A stretch of 64,000 nt of DNA from Promethearchaeota archaeon (GTDB lineage: Archaea; Asgardarchaeota; Hermodarchaeia; Hermodarchaeales; Hermodarchaeaceae). The notes beneath the pieces were generated by a model, which was given only the letters and a program-made list of their open reading frames with translations, was not told the DNA's origin and did no database searches. How positions within the stretch are numbered: position 1 is the stretch's first letter; each line of letters begins with the position of its first letter. The position numbers and the translations under genes are program-made. The stretch is taken from positions 32,001 through 96,000 of the forward strand of contig JBHLMG010000002.1 of assembly GCA_048938385.1 (NCBI GenBank). Reading direction: 5' to 3'. Positions 3,926 through 45,199 of the stretch are shown here, one piece after another.

Positions 3926-5200
3926 ATGCAACCTGAAGATATGCGTCGAGATTTACCTATCACGCAACAATTCATCTACTTCGATAACGCTGCAACAACA
4001 CCTGTTCCAAGCCCAATCATCGACACGATCATTGAATATTTCGAAGAATATTGTGCTAACATCGAACGGGGAGCCTACTCGATTGCAGCGAAAGCATCAG
4101 ATGTTTGTGATGTAGCCCGCAACGATATTGCTACAAAATTACTGCATTGTGATGTGGAAGAATTCATTTTCACGCGGAATCAAACCCAAGCGGCTAACTT
4201 CGTTGCATATGCTTTAGAACATCCCTTTTTGAATCGTTGGAGTACAGGCTTTCAGTTTGCCCCGCCCCTTGTCAAATGGAGTCCTGAAAGCAAAATCGTT
4301 ACAACGCTACTTGAGCACCATTCTAATTTCATGCCATGGTTACGGCTGGCAAAACATGTCGGGGCTCAATTTCGTACAATTACTCCAACTCTGGATGGAC
4401 TACTACTCCCCGAAATGTTTGCGGAGGCCGTTGATGAAAACACCGCCTTTGTTGCCTTTCAACACGCTTCTAACGCAATGGGTACCAAACATGATGTACA
4501 AACGATTGTTCGTACTATTAAGGCGGTAAATCCTCAGTGCTTGGTTTTCATTGATGGTGCCCAAGCAGTAGGGCATATGCCTGTGGATGTTACGACCTTG
4601 GGGTGTGATTTTTACTCGTTTTCTGGCCACAAAGGGCCTCTGGGACCCCCTGGAACTGGAGGATTATACGTTCGCGAAGAACTTCTCCAACGCATGGCTC
4701 CGGCTGAAGTGGGAGGGGGAACTATCGCTGCCGTCACTGATAGTGATTACATGCTACGAAGAGACCACCGTGCGCGACGATGGGATGCAGGAACGCCCAA
4801 TATCATTGGACTCATTGGACTTGGCGCTGCTGTGAAATACCTGAATCGCATCGGTATTCAGAAAGTTGCTCAACAGGAGCATGTGTTAACTCGATACCTA
4901 CTCGATGGAATACGCGAGATTTCCAACCTTGTTGTGTATGGCCCTTATGAGGACATGACCTCGAAGATTGGCGCAGTATGCTTCAATATAGATGGATGGT
5001 TCTCACACGATGTGAGCCTTGCTTTAGATGCTCAATGGAAAATCCTTACCCGGGCTGGACATCATTGTTGCATGCCAATGATGAACCTACTTGGAGTATT
5101 AGAAAAATACCAAGGGAATGTCCGGGCGAGCTTCCACTACTTTAACCTCATTGAAGAAGTGGATGTCTTGGTGGGCGCCCTAAAAACCTTAGCCGGATAA
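3926..5200 (+). CDS. sufS: Cysteine desulfurase, SufS family (class V PLP)
   Basis: YFDNAATT, EHHSN, DGAQAVGH, the SGHK PLP lysine, GTPNI and the RAGHHC catalytic Cys motif. Confidence 0.92.
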   Translation: MQPEDMRRDLPITQQFIYFDNAATTPVPSPIIDTIIEYFEEYCANIERGAYSIAAKASDVCDVARNDIATKLLHCDVEEFIFTRNQTQAANFVAYALEHPFLNRWSTGFQFAPPLVKWSPESKIVTTLLEHHSNFMPWLRLAKHVGAQFRTITPTLDGLLLPEMFAEAVDENTAFVAFQHASNAMGTKHDVQTIVRTIKAVNPQCLVFIDGAQAVGHMPVDVTTLGCDFYSFSGHKGPLGPPGTGGLYVREELLQRMAPAEVGGGTIAAVTDSDYMLRRDHRARRWDAGTPNIIGLIGLGAAVKYLNRIGIQKVAQQEHVLTRYLLDGIREISNLVVYGPYEDMTSKIGAVCFNIDGWFSHDVSLALDAQWKILTRAGHHCCMPMMNLLGVLEKYQGNVRASFHYFNLIEEVDVLVGALKTLAG

Positions 5201-5204
5201 TCCG

Positions 5205-5957
5205 CTACACTGATCGACGAATGCTACTACATACCGGACAATCCGCATAATATGCGATTGGAATCTGATCAAACCGGAGATCGTTCAAATCTATAAAAAG
5301 CAGGTGTCCTGCAAGTCGTGGTTTTTTTCCAAGTAAAATTCTTACCGCTTCATGAACCTGAATATTAGCTACTACGCCCAATAGTGTGGGGTAGATACCA
5401 ATAGTATCGCAGGTGGGCTGTCGTGCGTCATCTACACCACCATAAATGCATTCCAAGCAGGGCGTTTTTCCAGGGAGGATAGTAGTGAGGTTTCCTACAG
5501 CGCCTAAAGCTCCTGCAAAGGCGTAAGGGATACCTTGGCGAACGCAAGCTCTGTTGATGATGTAACGAGGTCCAAACCGGTCTAAGCCGTCAACGATGAT
5601 GTCCATTCCTCGAATAAGCTCATCAACAGTTTCTTCTGCGAGCTGTTCTTGTCGGGGCTCAATAGTGACCTCTGGGTTTAAGGGCTGTAAGCGGCGCGTA
5701 GCCAGAGCGGTTTTAGGTTTCCCGATGTCCTTCTCCCGGTATAGGAATTGGCGTTGAAGATTGGATGCATCGACTACATCAGGGTCAATGATTCGGAGAT
5801 GATCCACACCCAGGGTAGTAAACTTAGTAGCTGATATACTCCCCAACCCCCCAATACCAACAACCGCAACTTTAGCCGCTCGAATGCGTTTCAATCCGTC
5901 TTTTCCGACATCACGGAGTACTATAAACCGCTGATAACGCGCATCCTTTGAAGGCAT
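5205..5957 (-). CDS. ThiF/MoeB/UbaA family E1-like adenylyltransferase
   Basis: RYQR, GIGGLG, DPDVVDASNLQRQ, PCLEC...CPVC zinc site and a TC catalytic Cys. The probable start is ATG 5957. Confidence 0.92.
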   Translation of the reverse strand: MPSKDARYQRFIVLRDVGKDGLKRIRAAKVAVVGIGGLGSISATKFTTLGVDHLRIIDPDVVDASNLQRQFLYREKDIGKPKTALATRRLQPLNPEVTIEPRQEQLAEETVDELIRGMDIIVDGLDRFGPRYIINRACVRQGIPYAFAGALGAVGNLTTILPGKTPCLECIYGGVDDARQPTCDTIGIYPTLLGVVANIQVHEAVRILLGKKPRLAGHLLFIDLNDLRFDQIPIAYYADCPVCSSIRRSV

Positions 5958-9886: not shown

Positions 9887-10420
9887 GTGAAAGAAATGGA
9901 AGCAATTGAAGCAATTTCCACTCGCCGCTCAATCCGTAACTTCACTGATCTGGAATTAACGGATGAACAAATTCATGACTTGTTGAAAATCATGGTTGCA
10001 GCTCCCAGTGCAGGGAATAAACAACCTTGGCGGATCTATGTTGTTCGTGATACCAAGGTTAAACGGAAACTAGCTATTGGTGCTGGTGATCAGGAGTTTA
10101 TCAACGAAGCTCCTGTGGTCTTTGTCGTTTGCCGGGTACCTGAAGAATCTGGGATTCGTTACGGGAATCGAGGTCGTAATTTTTATTCCATTCAGGATAC
10201 AGCTGCGATGACTCAGAATTTGTTGATTGCTGCGCACGCTATGGGCTTAGGGGCGTGTTGGGTCGGAGCATTCAACGATAGTGCTGTTGTTGCAGCTATC
10301 GAGTGCCCCCAGGGTATTTTACCTGTGGCTATTATTCCTGTTGGCTATCCGAAGGTTCTTGGTTCACTTCGTGGTCGACGTCCGCTGGACTCTGTTGTTA
10401 CCTTTATTCCATCCAAATAA
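9887..10420 (+). CDS. Nitroreductase family protein
   Basis: RRSIRNF, APSAGNKQPW, QNLLIAAHAMGLGACW and IPVGYP. Confidence 0.93.
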   Translation: MKEMEAIEAISTRRSIRNFTDLELTDEQIHDLLKIMVAAPSAGNKQPWRIYVVRDTKVKRKLAIGAGDQEFINEAPVVFVVCRVPEESGIRYGNRGRNFYSIQDTAAMTQNLLIAAHAMGLGACWVGAFNDSAVVAAIECPQGILPVAIIPVGYPKVLGSLRGRRPLDSVVTFIPSK

Positions 10421-10426
10421 GTGGTG

Positions 10427-11140
10427 CTAGATCAGGTCTTTCCCAAGGATAAGTCGAATGCACAAAGGAAAAACCCAGATGAACGCAGTTATAGCAGAGA
10501 TGATCTCGGGAATTGCAACTCCTGTAAAGGGTAAGACTGGTATTGTGTAGTAAATCACCCATACGCTAGCACTAATTAATGAAAGAAGGAAGGCAATGAT
10601 GCCCCAAAGCCGGCGCTGAGGTTCCAGCATCAATCGAACGCCATATAGCATTCCGGCAAGGAGCACACTAACGAAAAATCCTACTGAGACTGCGAAGTGA
10701 ATGCCAGTTATACCCTCATGAAAAATCCCAATTGCGATGAGGAAGAGGACAGCGATGGTAAGTATGACCGAAGCAATGACACCCAGTATGGAACGCTCGA
10801 AATAATGGTGCCATATTAGCCATAGGGTTACTGCAAGGGTAATCAATCCTCCAAGGCTTAACCCCCCGTTAAACACTGGAGCAGCCACATTGGTTCCTGG
10901 AACTCCATTGGATCCTCCAAGCATCCAAGGGTGTCCTAGATCACTCAACGCGTTCGTATACCAATTGAACCATGGCGATAGTAGAATTGCTACGCCAATA
11001 CTTATGAAGGCAATCAATGGTCCAATGATTCCGCACCAACCCGCAAATCGAGCTGATAGAAGAAACTCACGGATTGGATTAACCTTTTTTGGTTCCTCTT
11101 TCTCTTGCATAATATTCACCCATTGTTCAAGAGCCAACAA
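10427..11140 (-). CDS. DUF998-like membrane protein
   Basis: SPWFNWYTNALSDLG motif, FNGGL and about 6 TM segments. Confidence 0.75.
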   Translation of the reverse strand: MLALEQWVNIMQEKEEPKKVNPIREFLLSARFAGWCGIIGPLIAFISIGVAILLSPWFNWYTNALSDLGHPWMLGGSNGVPGTNVAAPVFNGGLSLGGLITLAVTLWLIWHHYFERSILGVIASVILTIAVLFLIAIGIFHEGITGIHFAVSVGFFVSVLLAGMLYGVRLMLEPQRRLWGIIAFLLSLISASVWVIYYTIPVLPFTGVAIPEIISAITAFIWVFPLCIRLILGKDLI

Positions 11141-34426: not shown

Positions 34427-35278
34427 ATGATACACCATATCTACATCATCGATGCACGTGATGAAATTGTAGTGGATAAAAAATTTTGGATCATCACGGT
34501 AAATGTCAAAGAAATGCAGGACTTCGCCAGTCGTGTTAAAGACGCTCAAGATGCCCTTATCGAAGAAATAGGTCCCATAAAGTACATTGGAAAACCCCTC
34601 GGGCGTGGTGTTGTTGTGTTATGTGCAGAAAGCGTCGATGATGACGATACCCTTAAGGAGAAATTAGATCGGGTGACCTACGAGTTTCGCCGTGTTATCA
34701 GCTACGAAGTTGAATACGAAGCCTTCATGGAGAATGTCGAAGACTATGTCACAACTACCTTGAAGGTCAGCATCATCGGCTATGGTGGCGTAGGCAAAAC
34801 CACCCTGGTCACCCTGCTTAATGGTGGCGTTCCCCCTACTAGTTATGTACCGACTATAGCGATTGATATCCAAAAAATCGAAGGAGCTAGGATTGGCACC
34901 TACGAAATTAGCACTTGGGACTTCGCTGGGCAGGACCGCTTTCGGAAGCTTTGGGAACTTTATTTCCGTGGAAGCCGCATCATTCTACTAGTTACCGATT
35001 CGACACTAGAGAATGTTCTTAATAGTAAAGATATCATCGACTTGATTCGACGCAAAGATATCGCTGCTCAACTCTTAGCCATTGCTAATAAACAAGACCT
35101 ACCCGGCGCCTTATCGCCTCAACTTGTTCAACGTATTCTTGGCATCAAAGCCTATGGAATGGTCGCAATTGATCCCAACAACCGGGAGAAAGCATTAGAT
35201 ATAATCAAAGAAGCGTTGAAACTCGCGGCACCAAGATTAGAGCCCGTCACACCTAAACCTGAAATGGTTTTTGACTAG
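34427..35278 (+). CDS. Longin-like domain fused to an Arf-family small GTPase
   Basis: The N-terminal MIHHIYIID... is longin-like. G1 GYGGVGKT, G2 PTI, G3 WDFAGQDRFRKLWELYF and G4 NKQD. Confidence 0.88.
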   Translation: MIHHIYIIDARDEIVVDKKFWIITVNVKEMQDFASRVKDAQDALIEEIGPIKYIGKPLGRGVVVLCAESVDDDDTLKEKLDRVTYEFRRVISYEVEYEAFMENVEDYVTTTLKVSIIGYGGVGKTTLVTLLNGGVPPTSYVPTIAIDIQKIEGARIGTYEISTWDFAGQDRFRKLWELYFRGSRIILLVTDSTLENVLNSKDIIDLIRRKDIAAQLLAIANKQDLPGALSPQLVQRILGIKAYGMVAIDPNNREKALDIIKEALKLAAPRLEPVTPKPEMVFD

Positions 35279-36427: not shown

Positions 36428-36520
36428 ATGGAGTCGATGGTTATGAAACCAGAAACTAATCAATGTTGTGTTAAAGAAAAGGTTCTAGCAGAAATCTACC
36501 GTTATCGCCGACTATGTTAG
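36428..36520 (+). CDS. Candidate small Cys-containing leader ORF (25-30 aa)
   Basis: MESMVMKPETNQCCVKEKVLAEIYRYRRLC*. It lies between the promoter and the ArsR gene, and its stop overlaps the GGAG RBS. Confidence 0.45.
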   Translation: MESMVMKPETNQCCVKEKVLAEIYRYRRLC

Positions 36521-36534
36521 GAGCTGAATCAAAG

Positions 36535-37257
36535 ATGTTTGGTCGAAAGAAAGACAAGGAAGATGAACGCCGGGAAGACAAGAGTCTCCGAGAAGAGATG
36601 CGCCGTCTCGAGGAACAGATGCGTGATCTTCGTCGCCGCCTTAAAGACGAAGGAAAAACAAGTAGGCCCGATGATTCTTGGGACGAGGATTCGAAAAGAC
36701 CCGAAGCTCCTAAAGTGCCAAAAGAACAACACTACAGAAAAGAGTTCAGAGGGGATCTTGGCGATTTTGAAGCGGACATGGCCGAATTTGGAAAACAAAT
36801 GGGTCAGTACGGCAAAGAACTTGGGGATTACATCAAAATGGTTGTTGCTGACGCAATGAAAGGTGCCAATAAGGCGATGCAACGGATTTTCATTGGACCT
36901 GATGGCGCCCGGATAAAGATTAACGATCGTGAAGTTGATCTTGGTAAAGCTGCTGAAGAACGAATTCAGCCTGTCCCTGCAGAGGAAGCTGAGCGGTTGC
37001 TAACTCCTCTAGCTAGTGGAGAACGGATTCGACTACTATATTTGCTTGCCGAGGAACCCCGGTACCACCAGGATTTAATGGACCTTTCTGGACTCAAACC
37101 CGGAACCCTTCCACATCACTTGAAGCAGCTTGAAGAGGCAGGATATGTAACGCAGGAACGAGTGCGAGGACGATACCTCATCACGATTCCCGGTCGAATG
37201 GCTCTGAAATTAGCTGAATACTTGCACTATCAGATGGAGTCAGGTATTGGAGATTAG
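36535..37257 (+). CDS. ArsR-family wHTH regulator with a charged coiled-coil N-terminus
   Basis: LASGERIRLL..L....R...DL...GL..GTLPHHLKQLEEAGYV...RGRY.IT..G. ATG 36535 follows GGAG. Confidence 0.85.
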   Translation: MFGRKKDKEDERREDKSLREEMRRLEEQMRDLRRRLKDEGKTSRPDDSWDEDSKRPEAPKVPKEQHYRKEFRGDLGDFEADMAEFGKQMGQYGKELGDYIKMVVADAMKGANKAMQRIFIGPDGARIKINDREVDLGKAAEERIQPVPAEEAERLLTPLASGERIRLLYLLAEEPRYHQDLMDLSGLKPGTLPHHLKQLEEAGYVTQERVRGRYLITIPGRMALKLAEYLHYQMESGIGD

Positions 37258-37287: not shown

Positions 37288-37926
37288 ATGAGTTCAAGTT
37301 CAACTTGGCGAAACCGTAGTCGAAATTTAGTGCTTGGCGCGTTAGCTGGTCGTGTTGCAAATCCAACTGATGTCACACGATCTGATAAAGCGCTCATCAG
37401 TGTGAACGAGGGTACCTTGTATTTTCCGATTTTCTACCAAAACCATGAGGTAGGAGGAATATTCATTGGATACGGACAGGTCATTGTCGATGCTATTGTA
37501 GAAACCACTCGTGGTGCTTTGGGGAAAAGTTATGAGTTTTTCTGGAATGGGAGCCTTTTTCTGATCAGTGAAGATGGTGAATGGTCTCCACCAAGCACGG
37601 AACCTGTGCGTGAACGGGACATCCATGAATTCCTACTTAGTTCCGTTGATGAAGCACAGGAAAGAGCCCAAAACATCTTTGATAGATTTTTAGATCAAAA
37701 TCGCAATTGGTTCACTGATACCTTCTTTCAGCGTAATCGGGGTTGGATAGCCACGATATTAGATACGCAACGTGGAAAGTGTGGTATTATTGCAAGTGAA
37801 GATCGACTTATTTTGAACATAGGTCAACTCAAACTAATTCTTACTGGGAATAAGCTGGTACACAAAGAAGGTCGGAAGAAAGTGTTGGTCGCAGGAAGAG
37901 GAGGACCAATTATCCGCTTCGGTTAA
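37288..37926 (+). CDS. Hypothetical protein (same operon as ArsR)
   Basis: 212-aa beta-rich ORF. No motif recognised. Confidence 0.7.
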   Translation: MSSSSTWRNRSRNLVLGALAGRVANPTDVTRSDKALISVNEGTLYFPIFYQNHEVGGIFIGYGQVIVDAIVETTRGALGKSYEFFWNGSLFLISEDGEWSPPSTEPVRERDIHEFLLSSVDEAQERAQNIFDRFLDQNRNWFTDTFFQRNRGWIATILDTQRGKCGIIASEDRLILNIGQLKLILTGNKLVHKEGRKKVLVAGRGGPIIRFG

Positions 37927-38094: not shown

Positions 38095-41000
38095 GTGTTT
38101 GATAGCATGGCACTGCTTGATTATGGAGGTTTGGTGCAAACCTACCAAAACGCATTTGAAACAGCTCAGACTGAGCTGGTAGAGATTGCGAAGCACCTGA
38201 CCAAAGCGAAGGGTCAAGGTATTATCGACATTCTCGGACAAATTACTGAATTATTACAACGAATTCAATTAGCATCTGCAACACCAAAGCTTGAGTTAGA
38301 AGTTGCACGGGCCATCGCTAGAGATTATGATACCATTGCTCAACGATGGCGAGAACTAGAACGCTATTTTATTGAAGAAATAAAATACGATGATTATGTG
38401 TATCGCTCAGACGAGGACCGAGCTGAAGCTGCAGCAGAAGCGTTGACACTTATTCGAAACCAAACTCTCCATTCATTAGAAGTTGCTGGGACGATGTTCG
38501 GTCTGTCTCATGAATGGCGTCGCGCTGCAAAGTGCTTCAGTACAGTTGTACAAGCACGGAAAGCCGAAGAGAATCCTCTTGCAGCACTTCCCGCTATCAT
38601 TCGTGAATATCGGTGTTATGAGGAATTAGCTGACATCCCTCAGGTACTTAGCATCGGTCGCGCTATTTTTCGGCTCCTAAGTAATATCACTGTCTCCCTC
38701 TCCGAAGAAGACCAACATATGCTTTCTGAGGCAACAGAGTTTTTCCGAAAAACCGCCATGACGGCAGTAACCAATCGACAAAAGGATCCAGATGTGAATG
38801 TCTCGCTTGCAGCTGTATATCTTTGGAACGAAGCTATTGCTCTAGCTCTACTCGCTGATCCTGAGGATGATAAGGCGTTAATTCGCTTTCGCGCATTAGC
38901 GGAATTTTTTGAACAGGTTGGTAAGGAAGAACTCGCTCAACCCTCTCCATCCCTTAAACGATTTATCGGTAGTTACATGGAAGGGGCTTTTGCTTATCTT
39001 CGAATCACACGAGATATCTCTGGGTTCACTGTTGGTGAAGCCAGGCATCAGAGTGTTCAACTAACTCAATACGCTGCAGATTTCATTCTCACGCTTATTG
39101 AAAGACTTGGATATCAACAGGTTCGGATTGTGGATGACGCAACCAAGGCAATGAAGGGACTTATTGCAGTGTTTGAGCTAATTCAACGGGGATATGAGGG
39201 GGCAAGGGCTTTCCAAGAATTGGCAAAACAAGCAGGCGTCATCTTAGTGCATGCACAGCATCAACAGGATCAACCTCTCATCGATCTTGCAATGGTATAT
39301 CGATGGTTATGTGAGGGGGCAAGCAGCGCGCTTCATGTAATTTCTTCAAAACTCGTCTCAGATATCTATCGGATTGGTATTGTTAGCGATGTTTTAGATA
39401 TTGGCTCAAAGGAGGAACTTAGGCATCGAATTATGGATCTCCTTGGGCTTGAAGAGGAAGATGACATCTTTGGTCTTCTCCTTGATGCTGAAGTAGAATT
39501 TGATGATGTTGTTGACTTATTCAAGAGTCTGGATCTCTTTTGGGTCGCAGCGATTTGCAAACTCAATTTAGGTCAATTACGCCAGAACCTTAGTTTTCTC
39601 GAACTAAAAATGGAGCCACCTGAGTCAGCAGAACAAGCCTTAGATAGCGCTGAGGCGGAGACAGAGGGTGAGGATATGCCATTTTGGGGTGCAGCACCGT
39701 CTATTGATTTTATTACCGCTGCTGATCTCTATTCATATTCGTTTCGATTAAAGCGTGGGGTAGACGAAACTCTTCCCATAGAATTAGCAGGAGAACAAGA
39801 ATCTTGGATTCCCCATCGTGATCCAGATGATCTCCGTCGTCGTGCAGCTCATAGTCATTGGCTTGCAGGACTTGCGAACCTCGAAGAAGGGAAAATCGAG
39901 GAAGGTGGACGCGAGCTTTTTCTAGCGAAAAATGCTTACGAGTTACTGGATCGTCACCGAGAAGCTATTGCTTGTTTGGAGGTGTGGATGCGCCAATTAG
40001 TTATTACAATTACAGGGGATGAACTTGGTGGCGCTCGGCCTACACAAGCCCGATTAAGAGAAGTACTAACTGTTACTGATGAATTAGTTGGTTTGTATAC
40101 TTTGCGGCGAACAAGTGCGGGAACCATCGATGACATTCTCGGAGTTGTGCAATTCCTACAAAACCAGGTGGGTATGGAAAACTGGACCCTTATTGTATAC
40201 CTCAGGACAATTGAGTATGTACGTGAAGCCTTACGAGTAGCTATGCACTTTGGGACTCCCGAACGAGTTCTAGAAATTCTTCGCTTCCTTCGGGAAGAAC
40301 TTCGCGACTTCCTCGATAGCGATTTTGCTATCGGTATCTATCCCAACTTCGAAACAGAGACCACTGTATATTTCGAAGCAGAAACGCCTATCAAACTTGC
40401 TATCCTCAATGTCTCTGACAAGGAAGCTGCTAACCTCTCCATTCGACCTTTGGGTGTGCTCCCGCATATTTCCCCTAGTTCATCCCAACCTTGGAAAGCT
40501 TCTCGTGATCCCAGCCAGGTCACATTGAAGCACTTCTACATTGGTTGTGATGATGCCGCTTTTGATATCGATGAAGAGACCTACTATCAGAAGCCTGCAG
40601 ATGCTTTTGGTCCTCCACACCCGATACCAGTCACCTTAACCAGTTCTTCGGCACCCGAACAGGAACCAGGTTCACCATCACAGCAAATTATTAGTCAACA
40701 ACCTTGGCTTGGTGTCATGTGGACTGGGGATTACAACGGAACATCTATTGGCAATCTGGCGGCATTTACAGAGGAACCCACTACTGCAGAGATGCCTCTC
40801 CGTTCTCTTGATGCTCTCACCCAATCAGCGTTCTTCACGGTTTTTACAAAGTCCGCTCGTGAAGGCAATATTCTTCCAGGGCAAATATTCCCTGTCACCT
40901 TCGGCATTTACCATCCAGGATCTGCTCAACCTATTGCCATCCAAACCGTCTTCTTCAAAATCGCTAGCCGCCCTAAAATCCTAAAGGCCAACACCAATTG

Positions 41001-42972
41001 GGTCACGACCTTGGATAATAACTGGGAAGAATCCTTTGGAATTACCTTCGAAAAAGGTGCCCAACTACCAAAGTATGTTCCACGCTTTGCTCCCGAATAC
41101 GAGTTGAAAACCTATGTGAATCCCTCTACCCTTGTACCCACCATCACAATGGGCTCTGATGCTGTCACAATCACCAAATACCTCAAGAATGTTCCTTTCC
41201 TCTTCAACCTACGCTATAAAGGCAAACGGGAGCTTTACTCTGGGAATAATTTCCTTGTTGAGAGTGATATCAGTCTTGAAATGCCGATTCAAGGTCGCGT
41301 CGAGGGTGAGTATGAATTCTTACGCATTCGCACTCCTCCTCAAATGATAACAGCTGAGGAGTTGGCACAACCACGGCTACGGAATGGTGTCAATTTCCAA
41401 GAGCTGTTTTATGGCACGGTGTTCATCGGAGATTCGAAATACGATGGTGAATACTACATCTATCGCTTATGGATATGTTTCCAACCCGGTGAACGGACAC
41501 CTGCTCCTGGAGCAAATTACCGACAAGGATGGACAAACCATCGTCTCGACATATTCTTGGACCCGAAAACCTGGGAACCTCGACTCTTAATCACCGATTA
41601 TTTCATTGAATTCGAAGATGGTCGAGGAGAATGGGTAGAAGCTCTATTCACTTTCAAGGCTGCCAGTTCTACTTGGTTTGGTATTCGTCGCCTTACTGCT
41701 GATTTACAACGGGAAGATGATCTCACCCGGTATCCTGCAGCTTTTGAAAACGAAATTCGCCATGCCCTCAGAGATCTGGGCGTCGATGAACAGACTCCTT
41801 TGAAACTGACAGGGTTCGCTCTAGGTCAGCGTCTTGGCTTCATCGAACTGATTCGTGCTAGCTGGTCCCGGAATAAACAGGATGGTCCTGTCATCTTCAA
41901 ACCGCCACGAGCTCACCTCTTCCGGGACTATTGGAGCCAACGTTATGAACACGGTCTTTATCGTGAAGACTGGCAAGGAGGCCCGGATATCAACCTCTAT
42001 GAAATGAAATTCAATGATCGAAGTGGTGGGCACTCCAAGTACATCCGAGCCTCTCGCAAACGGGATTTCCCCCATGAAGTTGGTATCATGACGCGTGAAG
42101 GAGATCGCTGCGATCTTGTCATCACACCTCCTGGAGAAGCCAGTATTCCGATAACCTTACGAAATCTCATTAATCCCCGAAAAATCGAGCTTTGGACCCG
42201 CCCACATGTTAGCTTCAGCCGCCGCTTCAACTTCATCGCCAAATACTTCGGTCGACCACCGAAAATCCACACCACTAGTCTCTACTTCTATAGTACACGC
42301 CGTGAACTTAACCCCTACTATAAAGGCCAAGTTCGCGGGAAAGACCAATGGGTACACTATCCCGCAGCAAAATACTGGACTGGCAAAAAATGGGCTCCTA
42401 TTCCACAAGACTTCCATCCTGCCCAACACCCGGAAAACATCGCTTATGGTATCAATACCTGGCTGGAAGCTGACGCTTACTGGGTCTACCGCTATGTCTG
42501 GTACTGGCCCCTTGAAATCACATTTCCTCTCCCTCACTCTGACTGGGAGCGCGCTGACATTTGGATCAACGCTCGAACAGGCAACATCGAATGGATTACC
42601 AGCGACTATCACTGGCGCGAGCTATGGTATGAGAACTCTGTAAAGGTCCGTGAAGTTAATCCAATCATCGACTTTCTCTTCAACTGGAACACTCCTGAAC
42701 CCCTGACGGTAAAAGATGGAGCCCAAGTTCACCAACCTCTTGCTCCCTACTTTGGTGAGGGTAAGACTATCGGTGAGTTCGCAGATCAACTCCCGTGGCT
42801 TTTCGCACGATACAAGCACAGCTGTGAACACCTACACAAGCTCCACTCTTCCTTCTGGGGTAAGCATAAAGTCAAAATCGTCTACGGGTTCCTTGCTCTC
42901 ATCATTCTGACCATTGTGTTGTTCACGGTTCCGCCCATTCGCGACTTCATCCTAGGACTTCTTCCACCTTGA
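38095..42972 (+). CDS. Giant multidomain protein: SNAP/TPR-like alpha-solenoid, Ig-like region, duplicated aromatic-rich beta domain and C-terminal TM anchor
   Basis: 1625-aa ORF. AGTMFGLSHEWRRAAKCF resembles an alpha-SNAP repeat. There are two YR...(W/H)R.DI...(T/S)DY units and a C-terminal IVYGFLALIILTIVLFTV. No signal peptide. Confidence 0.8.
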   Translation: MFDSMALLDYGGLVQTYQNAFETAQTELVEIAKHLTKAKGQGIIDILGQITELLQRIQLASATPKLELEVARAIARDYDTIAQRWRELERYFIEEIKYDDYVYRSDEDRAEAAAEALTLIRNQTLHSLEVAGTMFGLSHEWRRAAKCFSTVVQARKAEENPLAALPAIIREYRCYEELADIPQVLSIGRAIFRLLSNITVSLSEEDQHMLSEATEFFRKTAMTAVTNRQKDPDVNVSLAAVYLWNEAIALALLADPEDDKALIRFRALAEFFEQVGKEELAQPSPSLKRFIGSYMEGAFAYLRITRDISGFTVGEARHQSVQLTQYAADFILTLIERLGYQQVRIVDDATKAMKGLIAVFELIQRGYEGARAFQELAKQAGVILVHAQHQQDQPLIDLAMVYRWLCEGASSALHVISSKLVSDIYRIGIVSDVLDIGSKEELRHRIMDLLGLEEEDDIFGLLLDAEVEFDDVVDLFKSLDLFWVAAICKLNLGQLRQNLSFLELKMEPPESAEQALDSAEAETEGEDMPFWGAAPSIDFITAADLYSYSFRLKRGVDETLPIELAGEQESWIPHRDPDDLRRRAAHSHWLAGLANLEEGKIEEGGRELFLAKNAYELLDRHREAIACLEVWMRQLVITITGDELGGARPTQARLREVLTVTDELVGLYTLRRTSAGTIDDILGVVQFLQNQVGMENWTLIVYLRTIEYVREALRVAMHFGTPERVLEILRFLREELRDFLDSDFAIGIYPNFETETTVYFEAETPIKLAILNVSDKEAANLSIRPLGVLPHISPSSSQPWKASRDPSQVTLKHFYIGCDDAAFDIDEETYYQKPADAFGPPHPIPVTLTSSSAPEQEPGSPSQQIISQQPWLGVMWTGDYNGTSIGNLAAFTEEPTTAEMPLRSLDALTQSAFFTVFTKSAREGNILPGQIFPVTFGIYHPGSAQPIAIQTVFFKIASRPKILKANTNWVTTLDNNWEESFGITFEKGAQLPKYVPRFAPEYELKTYVNPSTLVPTITMGSDAVTITKYLKNVPFLFNLRYKGKRELYSGNNFLVESDISLEMPIQGRVEGEYEFLRIRTPPQMITAEELAQPRLRNGVNFQELFYGTVFIGDSKYDGEYYIYRLWICFQPGERTPAPGANYRQGWTNHRLDIFLDPKTWEPRLLITDYFIEFEDGRGEWVEALFTFKAASSTWFGIRRLTADLQREDDLTRYPAAFENEIRHALRDLGVDEQTPLKLTGFALGQRLGFIELIRASWSRNKQDGPVIFKPPRAHLFRDYWSQRYEHGLYREDWQGGPDINLYEMKFNDRSGGHSKYIRASRKRDFPHEVGIMTREGDRCDLVITPPGEASIPITLRNLINPRKIELWTRPHVSFSRRFNFIAKYFGRPPKIHTTSLYFYSTRRELNPYYKGQVRGKDQWVHYPAAKYWTGKKWAPIPQDFHPAQHPENIAYGINTWLEADAYWVYRYVWYWPLEITFPLPHSDWERADIWINARTGNIEWITSDYHWRELWYENSVKVREVNPIIDFLFNWNTPEPLTVKDGAQVHQPLAPYFGEGKTIGEFADQLPWLFARYKHSCEHLHKLHSSFWGKHKVKIVYGFLALIILTIVLFTVPPIRDFILGLLPP

Positions 42973-44545: not shown

Positions 44546-45199
44546 TTGAACGCGTTTATTCTTTTCCTCATTTCTGTGGTGCTGATTTCATTGAGCGGCG
44601 CACTTGCACCTGGCCCACTGCTATTTACTAATTTATCCAATGCCTCCCGGTGGGGATGGAAGGGCGGTGTCTGGCTTTCTATTGGTCACACAGTAGTCGA
44701 ATTCCCAGTGATTCTCCTTATTACCTATGGACTTAGCTATTTGATCTACATTCCGTTCCTTCAGTTCATCATTAGTCTTCTTGGGGGTTTTGTACTACTC
44801 GTTGTTGGTATCTTCCAACTACACGAGGCACTAAAGTCCTTCAATGAAATCGAAGATGGCGACTTAGCAAAACTTCGACCCACCCGGCATCCTTTCATGA
44901 TCGGTTTAGCATTTTCTGCTCTAAATCCCTTTTTCCTTGTTTGGTGGTTCACCGTCGGAGCTTCACTTGTACTCATTGCCTGGCTTTTTGCATCAGTCCT
45001 TGGAGTATTAGTAATGTTCGCAAGCCATGTTTGGATTGATTATGTCTGGCTTGCTGGAACGGCTTGGCTCACGGAGAAAGGGATGACCCTTGTTAGCACG
45101 AAAGGATACAGGATACTTCTAGGTGGATTTGGACTGTTGCTAGCCTTTTTTGGTATTCAGTTCTGTTTCAACGCTTTGCTCCTTTTAAATATCTTTTAG
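44546..45199 (+). CDS. LysE family transporter
   Basis: LSGALAPGPL, GH..VE and LNPFFLVWW. Confidence 0.88.
   Translation: MNAFILFLISVVLISLSGALAPGPLLFTNLSNASRWGWKGGVWLSIGHTVVEFPVILLITYGLSYLIYIPFLQFIISLLGGFVLLVVGIFQLHEALKSFNEIEDGDLAKLRPTRHPFMIGLAFSALNPFFLVWWFTVGASLVLIAWLFASVLGVLVMFASHVWIDYVWLAGTAWLTEKGMTLVSTKGYRILLGGFGLLLAFFGIQFCFNALLLLNIF

Follow-up and report, generated by a model that had tools for sequence, protein, structure and literature searches.

The stretch of DNA analysed here (the window) comprises 64,000 nucleotides of a Promethearchaeota archaeon genome of 2.5 Mb that is 90% complete, and our subject is a giant gene on its forward strand, where an unbroken frame of 1625 codons runs from an in-frame GTG at 38095 to 42972. 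As deduced from sequence features, a single helix at the C-terminus probably anchors its product to the cytoplasmic side of the cell membrane. It combines a modelled helical N-terminal half and an Ig-like β-sandwich with a conserved C-terminal module, termed DWER, which is the most informative part of the protein and was missed by an initial annotation of this DNA. No match to the giant protein was found in Pfam, the PDB or the literature, and the family appears undescribed, in agreement with that annotation. Residue numbers throughout count from the GTG at 38095 as codon 1, and the coordinates of all features are collected in Table 1.

The giant gene and its C-terminal anchor

The initial annotation had assigned 1625 amino acids (aa) to the protein, a length that holds for the open frame and probably not for the product: since the methionine at codon 5 (38107) is invariant among 19 full-length orthologs and the database entry for the protein has 1621 aa, translation most likely starts at 38107. 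The orthologs (1617–1632 aa, 51–83% identity) can be aligned end to end, and their records are named Promethearchaeota, Candidatus Thorarchaeota and Candidatus Hermodarchaeota. In a search of 41 related genomes, including 18 others of the same family, the gene was matched in 17 of these 18, with 12 matches full-length and unbroken and the rest weak or cut by contig ends; no full-length match was found elsewhere in the phylum, and stop codons were absent from all 13 full-length genomic matches. For the C-terminal half, only two full-length clusters were present among 1.84 billion cluster representatives. Because the orthologs are full-length, unbroken and confined to one Asgard family, these comparisons indicate that the gene is real, under selection and restricted to that family. 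The sequencing runs containing this DNA (n = 12) were (probable) DNA or unclassified, mostly from sediment or mangrove metagenomes, and no RNA run was listed.

To describe its topology, the protein was scanned for hydrophobic segments, a Kyte-Doolittle mean of at least 1.8 being taken as strong and 1.6 as a looser threshold. The sole strongly hydrophobic segment is the helix at aa 1595–1613; a weaker window at aa 236–254 scores 1.72 and passes the looser threshold only. Within the N-terminal 60 aa the maximum is 0.9, and an N-terminal hydrophobic segment was absent from all 20 orthologs examined. In each of these 20 sequences the missing signal peptide goes together with a single transmembrane helix less than ~30 residues from the C-terminus, the arrangement that places the protein in the tail-anchored class. 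Between one and four Lys/Arg residues stand in the 9–15 residues before the helix (at least three in 15 of the 20 orthologs; HKVK in the window protein), and one or two Arg residues follow it. Cysteine makes up 0.4–0.7% of each region of the protein, and the 1,621 aa contain three invariant cysteines, of which only C1339 lies within the module. The features named in the initial annotation, namely the missing signal peptide, the single C-terminal helix and a cytoplasmic bulk, are thereby borne out to different degrees: the hydrophobicity scan agrees with the first two in 20 of 20 orthologs, and the protein, as a predicted tail-anchored one, most likely has its bulk in the cytoplasm, in keeping with the lack of an N-terminal hydrophobic segment and with the Lys/Arg residues on the N-terminal side of the helix. 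The low cysteine content and the zinc ribbon found in the longest polytopic relatives (below) point the same way.

The membrane-proximal DWER module

Conservation within the giant protein peaks at aa 1100–1200 and 1250–1600. The DWER module is its best conserved part and the only part with relatives: in a profile search of the cluster representatives, sequences beyond the orthologs were retrieved by aa ~1440–1550 alone (~58 clusters, E 1e-26 to 1e-4). Almost all of these relatives are membrane proteins, with 2–15 predicted helices before the module and none with a transmembrane segment after it, and the longest polytopic ones (six clusters of ~59) end in a zinc ribbon that follows the module. 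Their records are named Hodarchaeales, Lokiarchaeota, Helarchaeota and Promethearchaeota, together with a divergent bacterial group that includes a Candidatus Eisenbacteria record. Among 151 sampled Asgard genomes the module was found in 30, which belong to 6 of 27 families, and always as one match per genome. A 545-aa module protein with six transmembrane helices (P0050) and a 1631-aa protein of the giant type (P0019) carry the same NCBI locus-tag prefix and apparently come from one assembly.

Despite a mean identity of 21%, an alignment of 61 module sequences retains invariant D, E, R, W, A, D, H and R positions, and the relatives carry their motifs in the order RDYWS, LYFY, aromatic strand, H-x-DWER, SDYH, NFHTP and LPW..RY. 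A PepSY identity was considered and rejected: 9 of the 61 sequences touch the Pfam model, only through a ~20-residue hairpin of the type W-V-D-A-x-T-G and at 13–15 bits against a cut-off of 24, a likeness at the level of a motif only. PDB sequence and profile searches returned nothing except a chance match of 23 residues to EgtD.

Upstream of the intact module lies a degenerate duplicate of its core, copy A, which is highly conserved within the family and reads WTNHR in place of the core SDWER. BLASTP aligned its aa 1117–1170 with the core at E 0.033, and hhalign, comparing the copy A family alignment with the module alignment, gave a probability of 43.5% (E 2.4e-4, 47 columns). AlphaFold2 (AF2) modelled copy A as a meander of five or six strands, with a predicted local distance difference test (pLDDT) of 70–83. 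These matches indicate that the β module is internally duplicated and that the intact copy adjoins the anchor. Compared with Vps62-type proteins by hhalign, copy A gave no signal (probability 0.3%).

The intact module did give such a signal. When the 61-sequence alignment was compared by hhalign with 19 Asgard Vps62-type sequences, a probability of 48.9% was obtained (E 1.7e-4, 79 columns), and four elements stood colinear and in register, namely the aromatic strand, H-x-x-D-W-E, S-x-x-H and the last His motif. The score of 34.7 compares with 14.1 ± 2.9 (maximum 29.0) in 250 column shuffles, none of which reached it, and with 18.4 for the reversed alignment. The 19-sequence set includes four divergent sequences, and tested members of its groups score 18.6–27.8 bits on the Pfam Vps62 model, whose threshold is 22.1 bits: out of five Asgard proteins scanned, three lay above the threshold (27.2, 27.8 and 23.6 bits) and two below (21.2 and 18.6 bits). 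One Asgard Vps62-type protein also scores 18.3 bits on Pfam NPP1, the model of the NLP family. An ESM Atlas feature search with the module and a 400-aa relative gave its first matches at 0.80, in the noise range, with one row in which Vps62 was assigned to 20% of the members. Overall, there is moderate support for a very remote kinship of the module with the Vps62/NLP fold rather than for membership of the family; its fold probably has a common origin with that of yeast Vps62 and of the NLP toxins, which bind lipids.

Soluble Vps62-type proteins of ~240 aa were found in 18 of the 26 genomes sampled from another Asgard family (f6, genomes L023–L040); a few longer Vps62-type proteins also occur in Asgard genomes. 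No literature joining Vps62 with Asgard archaea was found. The ~240-aa protein is without an obvious signal peptide, and several of its matches show an in-frame TAG or TAA near their ends. In a genome of the window's own genus (L017), a 646-aa frame at a contig end joins a Vps62-type domain, which scores 21.2–22.3 bits and so lies at the Pfam threshold, to Asp-rich repeats and a CARDB domain; no frame of this type was found in the window's own genome.

Table 1. Features of the giant gene and its upstream neighbours in the window
Feature	Coordinates (nt)	Strand	Evidence
Arf-family GTPase gene	34427–35278		Pfam Arf E 1.5e-19
247-aa protein, ArsR-type winged helix at C-terminus	36514–37257	+	Pfam HTH_5 E 4.2e-11; synteny
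212-aa protein, no known family	37288–37926	+	Synteny; co-distribution
Giant tail-anchored protein gene	38107–42972	+	ORF list, translation, orthologs; 1621 aa from invariant Met
N-terminal antiparallel four-helix bundle (aa 5–136)	38107–38502	+	
TPR-like α-solenoid (aa 137–745)	38503–40329	+	
Ig-like β-sandwich (aa ~744–960)	40324–40974	+	AF2 model; loop-interrupted
β-rich linker domain (aa 961–1089)	40975–41361	+	AF2, long hairpins, pLDDT 65–85
Copy A (aa 1090–1260), degenerate duplicate of C-terminal core	41362–41874	+	BLASTP, hhalign, AF2
Membrane-proximal DWER module (aa ~1270–1580)	41902–42834	+	Conservation, shared clusters, hhalign
Module motifs RDYWS (aa 1277–1281), LYFY (aa 1396–1399), YWVYRYVWYWP (aa 1461–1471)		+	
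Module motif HSDWER (aa 1481–1486)	42535–42552	+	
Module motifs after core: SDYH (aa 1503–1506), NWNTP (aa 1530–1534), QLPW..RY (aa 1565–1573)		+	
Single C-terminal transmembrane helix (aa 1595–1613), then 12-residue tail	42877–42933	+	Kyte-Doolittle mean 2.55 over 19 residues

The helical half, the Ig-like sandwich and neighbouring genes

The first ~750 aa had been annotated as all-helical, and the AlphaFold model built from a 19-sequence alignment is of this kind, with 27 helices across aa 5–745 (mean pLDDT 86, predicted template modelling score 0.79). The four-helix bundle is followed by stacked helical hairpins that form a superhelix, which together with the Foldseek matches places this half in the TPR-like α-solenoid fold class. 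Foldseek returned 39 PDB matches at E <= 0.001 (best E 4e-5, probability 1.0), and the top 50 matches listed are helical-repeat proteins, mostly of the TPR type, including Ski3, Ctr9, OGT, LGN and IFT-A subunits, with template modelling (TM) scores of 0.1–0.2. No Pfam TPR or SNAP repeat was found in the giant protein, and a standalone search with the solenoid gave only ortholog fragments and no relatives outside the orthologs.

The α-SNAP echo reported for this half in the initial annotation could not be upheld. The 18-residue sequence is present, at aa 131–148, but it lies where the four-helix bundle meets the helix after it and thus outside the stretch that superposes on SNAP, which is the last part of the solenoid (aa ~359–742, nt 39169–40320); the best superposition of that stretch is with the twisted helical sheets of the SNAP type. 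The Pfam SNAP model (PF14938) finds no match in aa 380–745 at E up to 10, while it matches generic TPR stretches at 12 other places in this genome, none of them in the giant gene, and also fires in 11 of 14 control prokaryotes. SNAPs are not among the top 50 Foldseek matches of the N-terminal half; they head the structure list for aa ~359–742, with a score within the usual range for helical repeats.

For the remainder of the protein, an AF2 model of aa 740–1625 (886 aa) is of moderate confidence up to ~aa 1260 and poor beyond. The β segments at aa 766–785 and 926–936 noted earlier are real strands in this model, and they belong to one Ig-like sandwich that is split by a disordered, poorly conserved loop of ~90 aa (aa ~787–879). 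No informative fold match was obtained for the linker that follows, because the Ig-like domain filled the match lists. With the 886-aa model, a Foldseek search of the PDB and an ESM Atlas shape search likewise gave nothing significant, with lists taken up by generic multidomain proteins of the Ig-like type; the weak structural matches included BBSome GAE and TRAPPII chains, TRAPPII only at E 6e-3 and a TM score of 0.1. The layout first proposed, a solenoid followed by an Ig-like domain as in adaptins and large TRAPP subunits, therefore stands as far as the modelled order of parts is concerned, whereas no specific kinship to adaptins or TRAPP emerged from the structural comparisons.

The giant gene is the last of a conserved same-strand trio that begins with the gene for the 247-aa ArsR-type protein, the N-terminal half of which is highly charged and rich in Lys, Glu and Arg, and continues with that for the 212-aa protein. 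This order is kept in eight other loci, including one of a sister genus at ~52% identity. The 212-aa protein was found in 16 of the 18 family genomes, with only two weak matches (E ~1e-5) elsewhere, and its 40 database clusters are all at least 45% identical, several of them lying on contigs of the same lengths as contigs recorded for orthologs of the giant gene. It may thus be a candidate partner of the giant protein, although the co-distribution is suggestive only, because the genomes are kin. Co-folding of the solenoid with the 212-aa protein ended in 'no answer' (score 0.00 in both runs), which is evidence for neither side. Since the 180-bp gap before the giant gene holds a T-run and TATA-like boxes, transcription of the gene may start from a separate promoter. 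In three different lineages a gene for a LysE-type translocator is found close to a DWER-module gene: in the window at 44546–45199 (1.5 kb downstream), in L011 at 10024–10923 and in L014 at 4651–5289. Of the two distant relatives, one has the translocator gene overlapping the end of its 890-aa polytopic gene, and the other has it at a distance of 2.6 kb. The recurrence may be coincidence.

Further upstream, the gene that the initial annotation had called a longin-Arf GTPase indeed encodes an Arf-family protein (Table 1); its N-terminal extension of ~105 aa was not identified as a longin domain. The Arf-like family is matched 28 times in the window's genome and in 41 of 41 Asgard genomes, with 1–47 matches per genome and at least seven in all but one small, incomplete assembly, and in the sister genus synteny extends over the whole block, from a helicase gene up to and including the giant gene. 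The number and spread of the paralogs, the restriction of the giant protein to a single family and the block-wide synteny argue that the Arf-like neighbour has no specific link to the giant protein.

Possible roles at the membrane and comparison with known systems

A role as a cytoplasmic membrane scaffold is plausible for the giant protein. More specifically, and tentatively, we propose that the DWER module may well engage the inner membrane surface while the solenoid docks partners, within a tail-anchored scaffold facing the cytoplasm. The C-terminal helix would be inserted post-translationally, leaving the N-terminal bulk inside the cell, and the module, as a divergent Vps62/NLP β-sandwich, would lie against the inner leaflet. 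NLP proteins hold a cation and a lipid sugar through a motif equivalent to DWER, and by analogy the invariant Asp/Glu/Arg/His cluster of the module could be the site at which it engages either the head group of a lipid or a partner protein in the membrane. The solenoid and the Ig-like domain would then extend into the cytoplasm, where soluble partners could dock on them. That the job of the module would be done at the membrane surface is suggested because other Asgard lineages fuse the same module to a multi-pass membrane domain. The initial annotation had counted a match to a toxin family as evidence against a scaffold, and the Vps62/NLP-like profile of the module touches on this point; it does not contradict a scaffold role, since the NLP-like module is here membrane-tethered and, as predicted, cytoplasmic.

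Several results weigh against this proposal. Pfam Vps62 (PF06101) finds no match at E up to 10 in the giant protein, in its pieces or in the whole genome, and none among the 61 module sequences, and for Pfam NPP1 (PF05630) the threshold was not reached, one of the 61 sequences matching at E 0.18. The link to Vps62 is only moderate, with an hhalign probability under 50%; against a set of six Vps62-type sequences the probability fell to 2.4% (E 0.02), and 3 of 300 column shuffles scored as well. In the 886-aa AF2 model the module has a pLDDT below 50 and is unreliable for fold assignment. The idea of lipid head-group binding is borrowed from NLPs, and the giant family has Asn at the position of the module's last conserved His, so a ligand site, if there is any, may be altered. 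Finally, it is from the positive-inside rule and the missing signal peptide that we infer the orientation of the protein.

The invariant charged and His constellation of the module, kept across so divergent a set of sequences, resembles an active site, and the module might instead carry the catalytic activity of an enzyme associated with the membrane. Such an enzyme could be, for example, a hydrolase or transferase whose substrates at the inner leaflet are the head groups of lipids or glycans linked to lipids; the solenoid would then only regulate it or position substrates. Most relatives couple the module to 2–15 transmembrane helices, as many membrane enzymes do, and GDPD, GlmS and hexapeptide transferase genes adjoin distant relatives. 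The neighbourhoods of these relatives are mixed, however, and include primase, amino-acid kinase and LysE genes as well, with no common partner emerging; no enzyme family was matched, and the loss of the last conserved His in the giant family also speaks against catalysis. NLP and Vps62 proteins, the relatives of the proposed fold, are to our knowledge not enzymes. On balance we regard an enzymatic role as unlikely, while giving it some weight. Very little weight can be given to the initial annotation's picture of an archaeal counterpart of SNAP-, TRAPP- or adaptin-like trafficking machinery working with the nearby Arf-like GTPase: an Ig-like sandwich does follow the solenoid and the sister genus does keep the Arf-like gene within this block, but the synteny covers the whole block, the Arf-like paralogs are found throughout the genomes searched, no relatives of the solenoid were found beyond the family, and both the SNAP echo and the SNAP profile fail as described above, which makes this picture very improbable.

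A location of the bulk outside the cell appears scarcely credible. The protein would then be a C-terminally anchored surface protein exported without a classical signal peptide, its NLP-like module binding surface glycans or the membrane of another cell. Archaeal surface proteins often have Ig-like domains and an anchor at the C-terminus, Trp and Tyr make up 5.5% and 6.4% of the module, a richness also seen in carbohydrate-binding domains, and canonical NLPs are secreted. Yet none of the 20 orthologs has an N-terminal hydrophobic segment, the Lys/Arg residues stand on the N-terminal side of the helix, a TPR-type solenoid of 740 aa is a cytoplasmic kind of domain, and the zinc ribbon of the longest polytopic relatives follows the module. 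A bolder version of the scaffold proposal, which we consider quite improbable, would make DWER an ancient cytoplasmic form of the Vps62/NLP fold that reads the inner leaflet. The giant protein would then be an Asgard invention in which this reader is coupled to a SNAP-like solenoid and an ear-like sandwich, giving a membrane-tethering or remodelling platform that recruits soluble machinery.

Asgard archaea have been searched intensively for precursors of eukaryotic membrane organisation, and the giant protein is large, strictly conserved, apparently cytoplasmic and membrane-anchored, and unannotated. If its module binds the inner leaflet, it would represent a new class of archaeal membrane-surface domain and offer a handle on what Asgard cells build inside their membranes. 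Should the tethering or remodelling platform prove true, the protein would be a lineage-specific experiment in endomembrane-type organisation among the closest archaeal relatives of eukaryotes. If it is only a lineage-specific scaffold, its interest would be local, confined to one family, with nothing tying it to trafficking.

Among known systems, the scaffolds of adaptins, large TRAPP subunits and the BBSome share with the giant protein a long α-solenoid followed by an Ig-like sandwich of the ear or GAE type. The SNAP family (α/γ-SNAP, Sec17) superposes on aa ~359–742 with a root-mean-square deviation of ~6 Å and 10–14% identity, tied with a designed repeat protein. SNAP function is defined by an N-terminal membrane loop and an NSF-activating C-terminus. 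The SNAP-like stretch described here is embedded in an anchored protein of 1,621 aa.

With the NLP/NPP1 cytolysins (PF05630) the module shares an H-x-D-W-E core, the aromatic strand before it and the S-x-H strand after it. The secretion and the conserved disulfide of that family are absent from the giant protein, which lacks a signal peptide and the conserved cysteine pair and appears cytoplasmic and anchored, and nothing points to cytolytic activity. The likeness to Vps62/DUF946 (PF06101) extends over 79 columns, in which the aromatic strand (YW.FY-type), H-x-x-D-W-E, S-x-H and the final His motif are colinear; Vps62 reads GDWEH where the module reads DWER, and an insert or a transmembrane bundle divides the module, which is also tethered to the membrane. 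Compared with the polytopic Asgard proteins, which have no solenoid, Ig-like domain, copy A or tail anchor, the giant protein carries a soluble insert of ~110 aa at the place where they have a transmembrane bundle, between RDYWS and the core, and reads NWNTP where they keep NFHTP. The whole C-terminal module is nevertheless common to both, with matches at E 1e-26 to 1e-12, from RDYWS, LYFY and the aromatic strand through H-x-DWER and SDYH to LPW..RY, and in both it always adjoins membrane helices.

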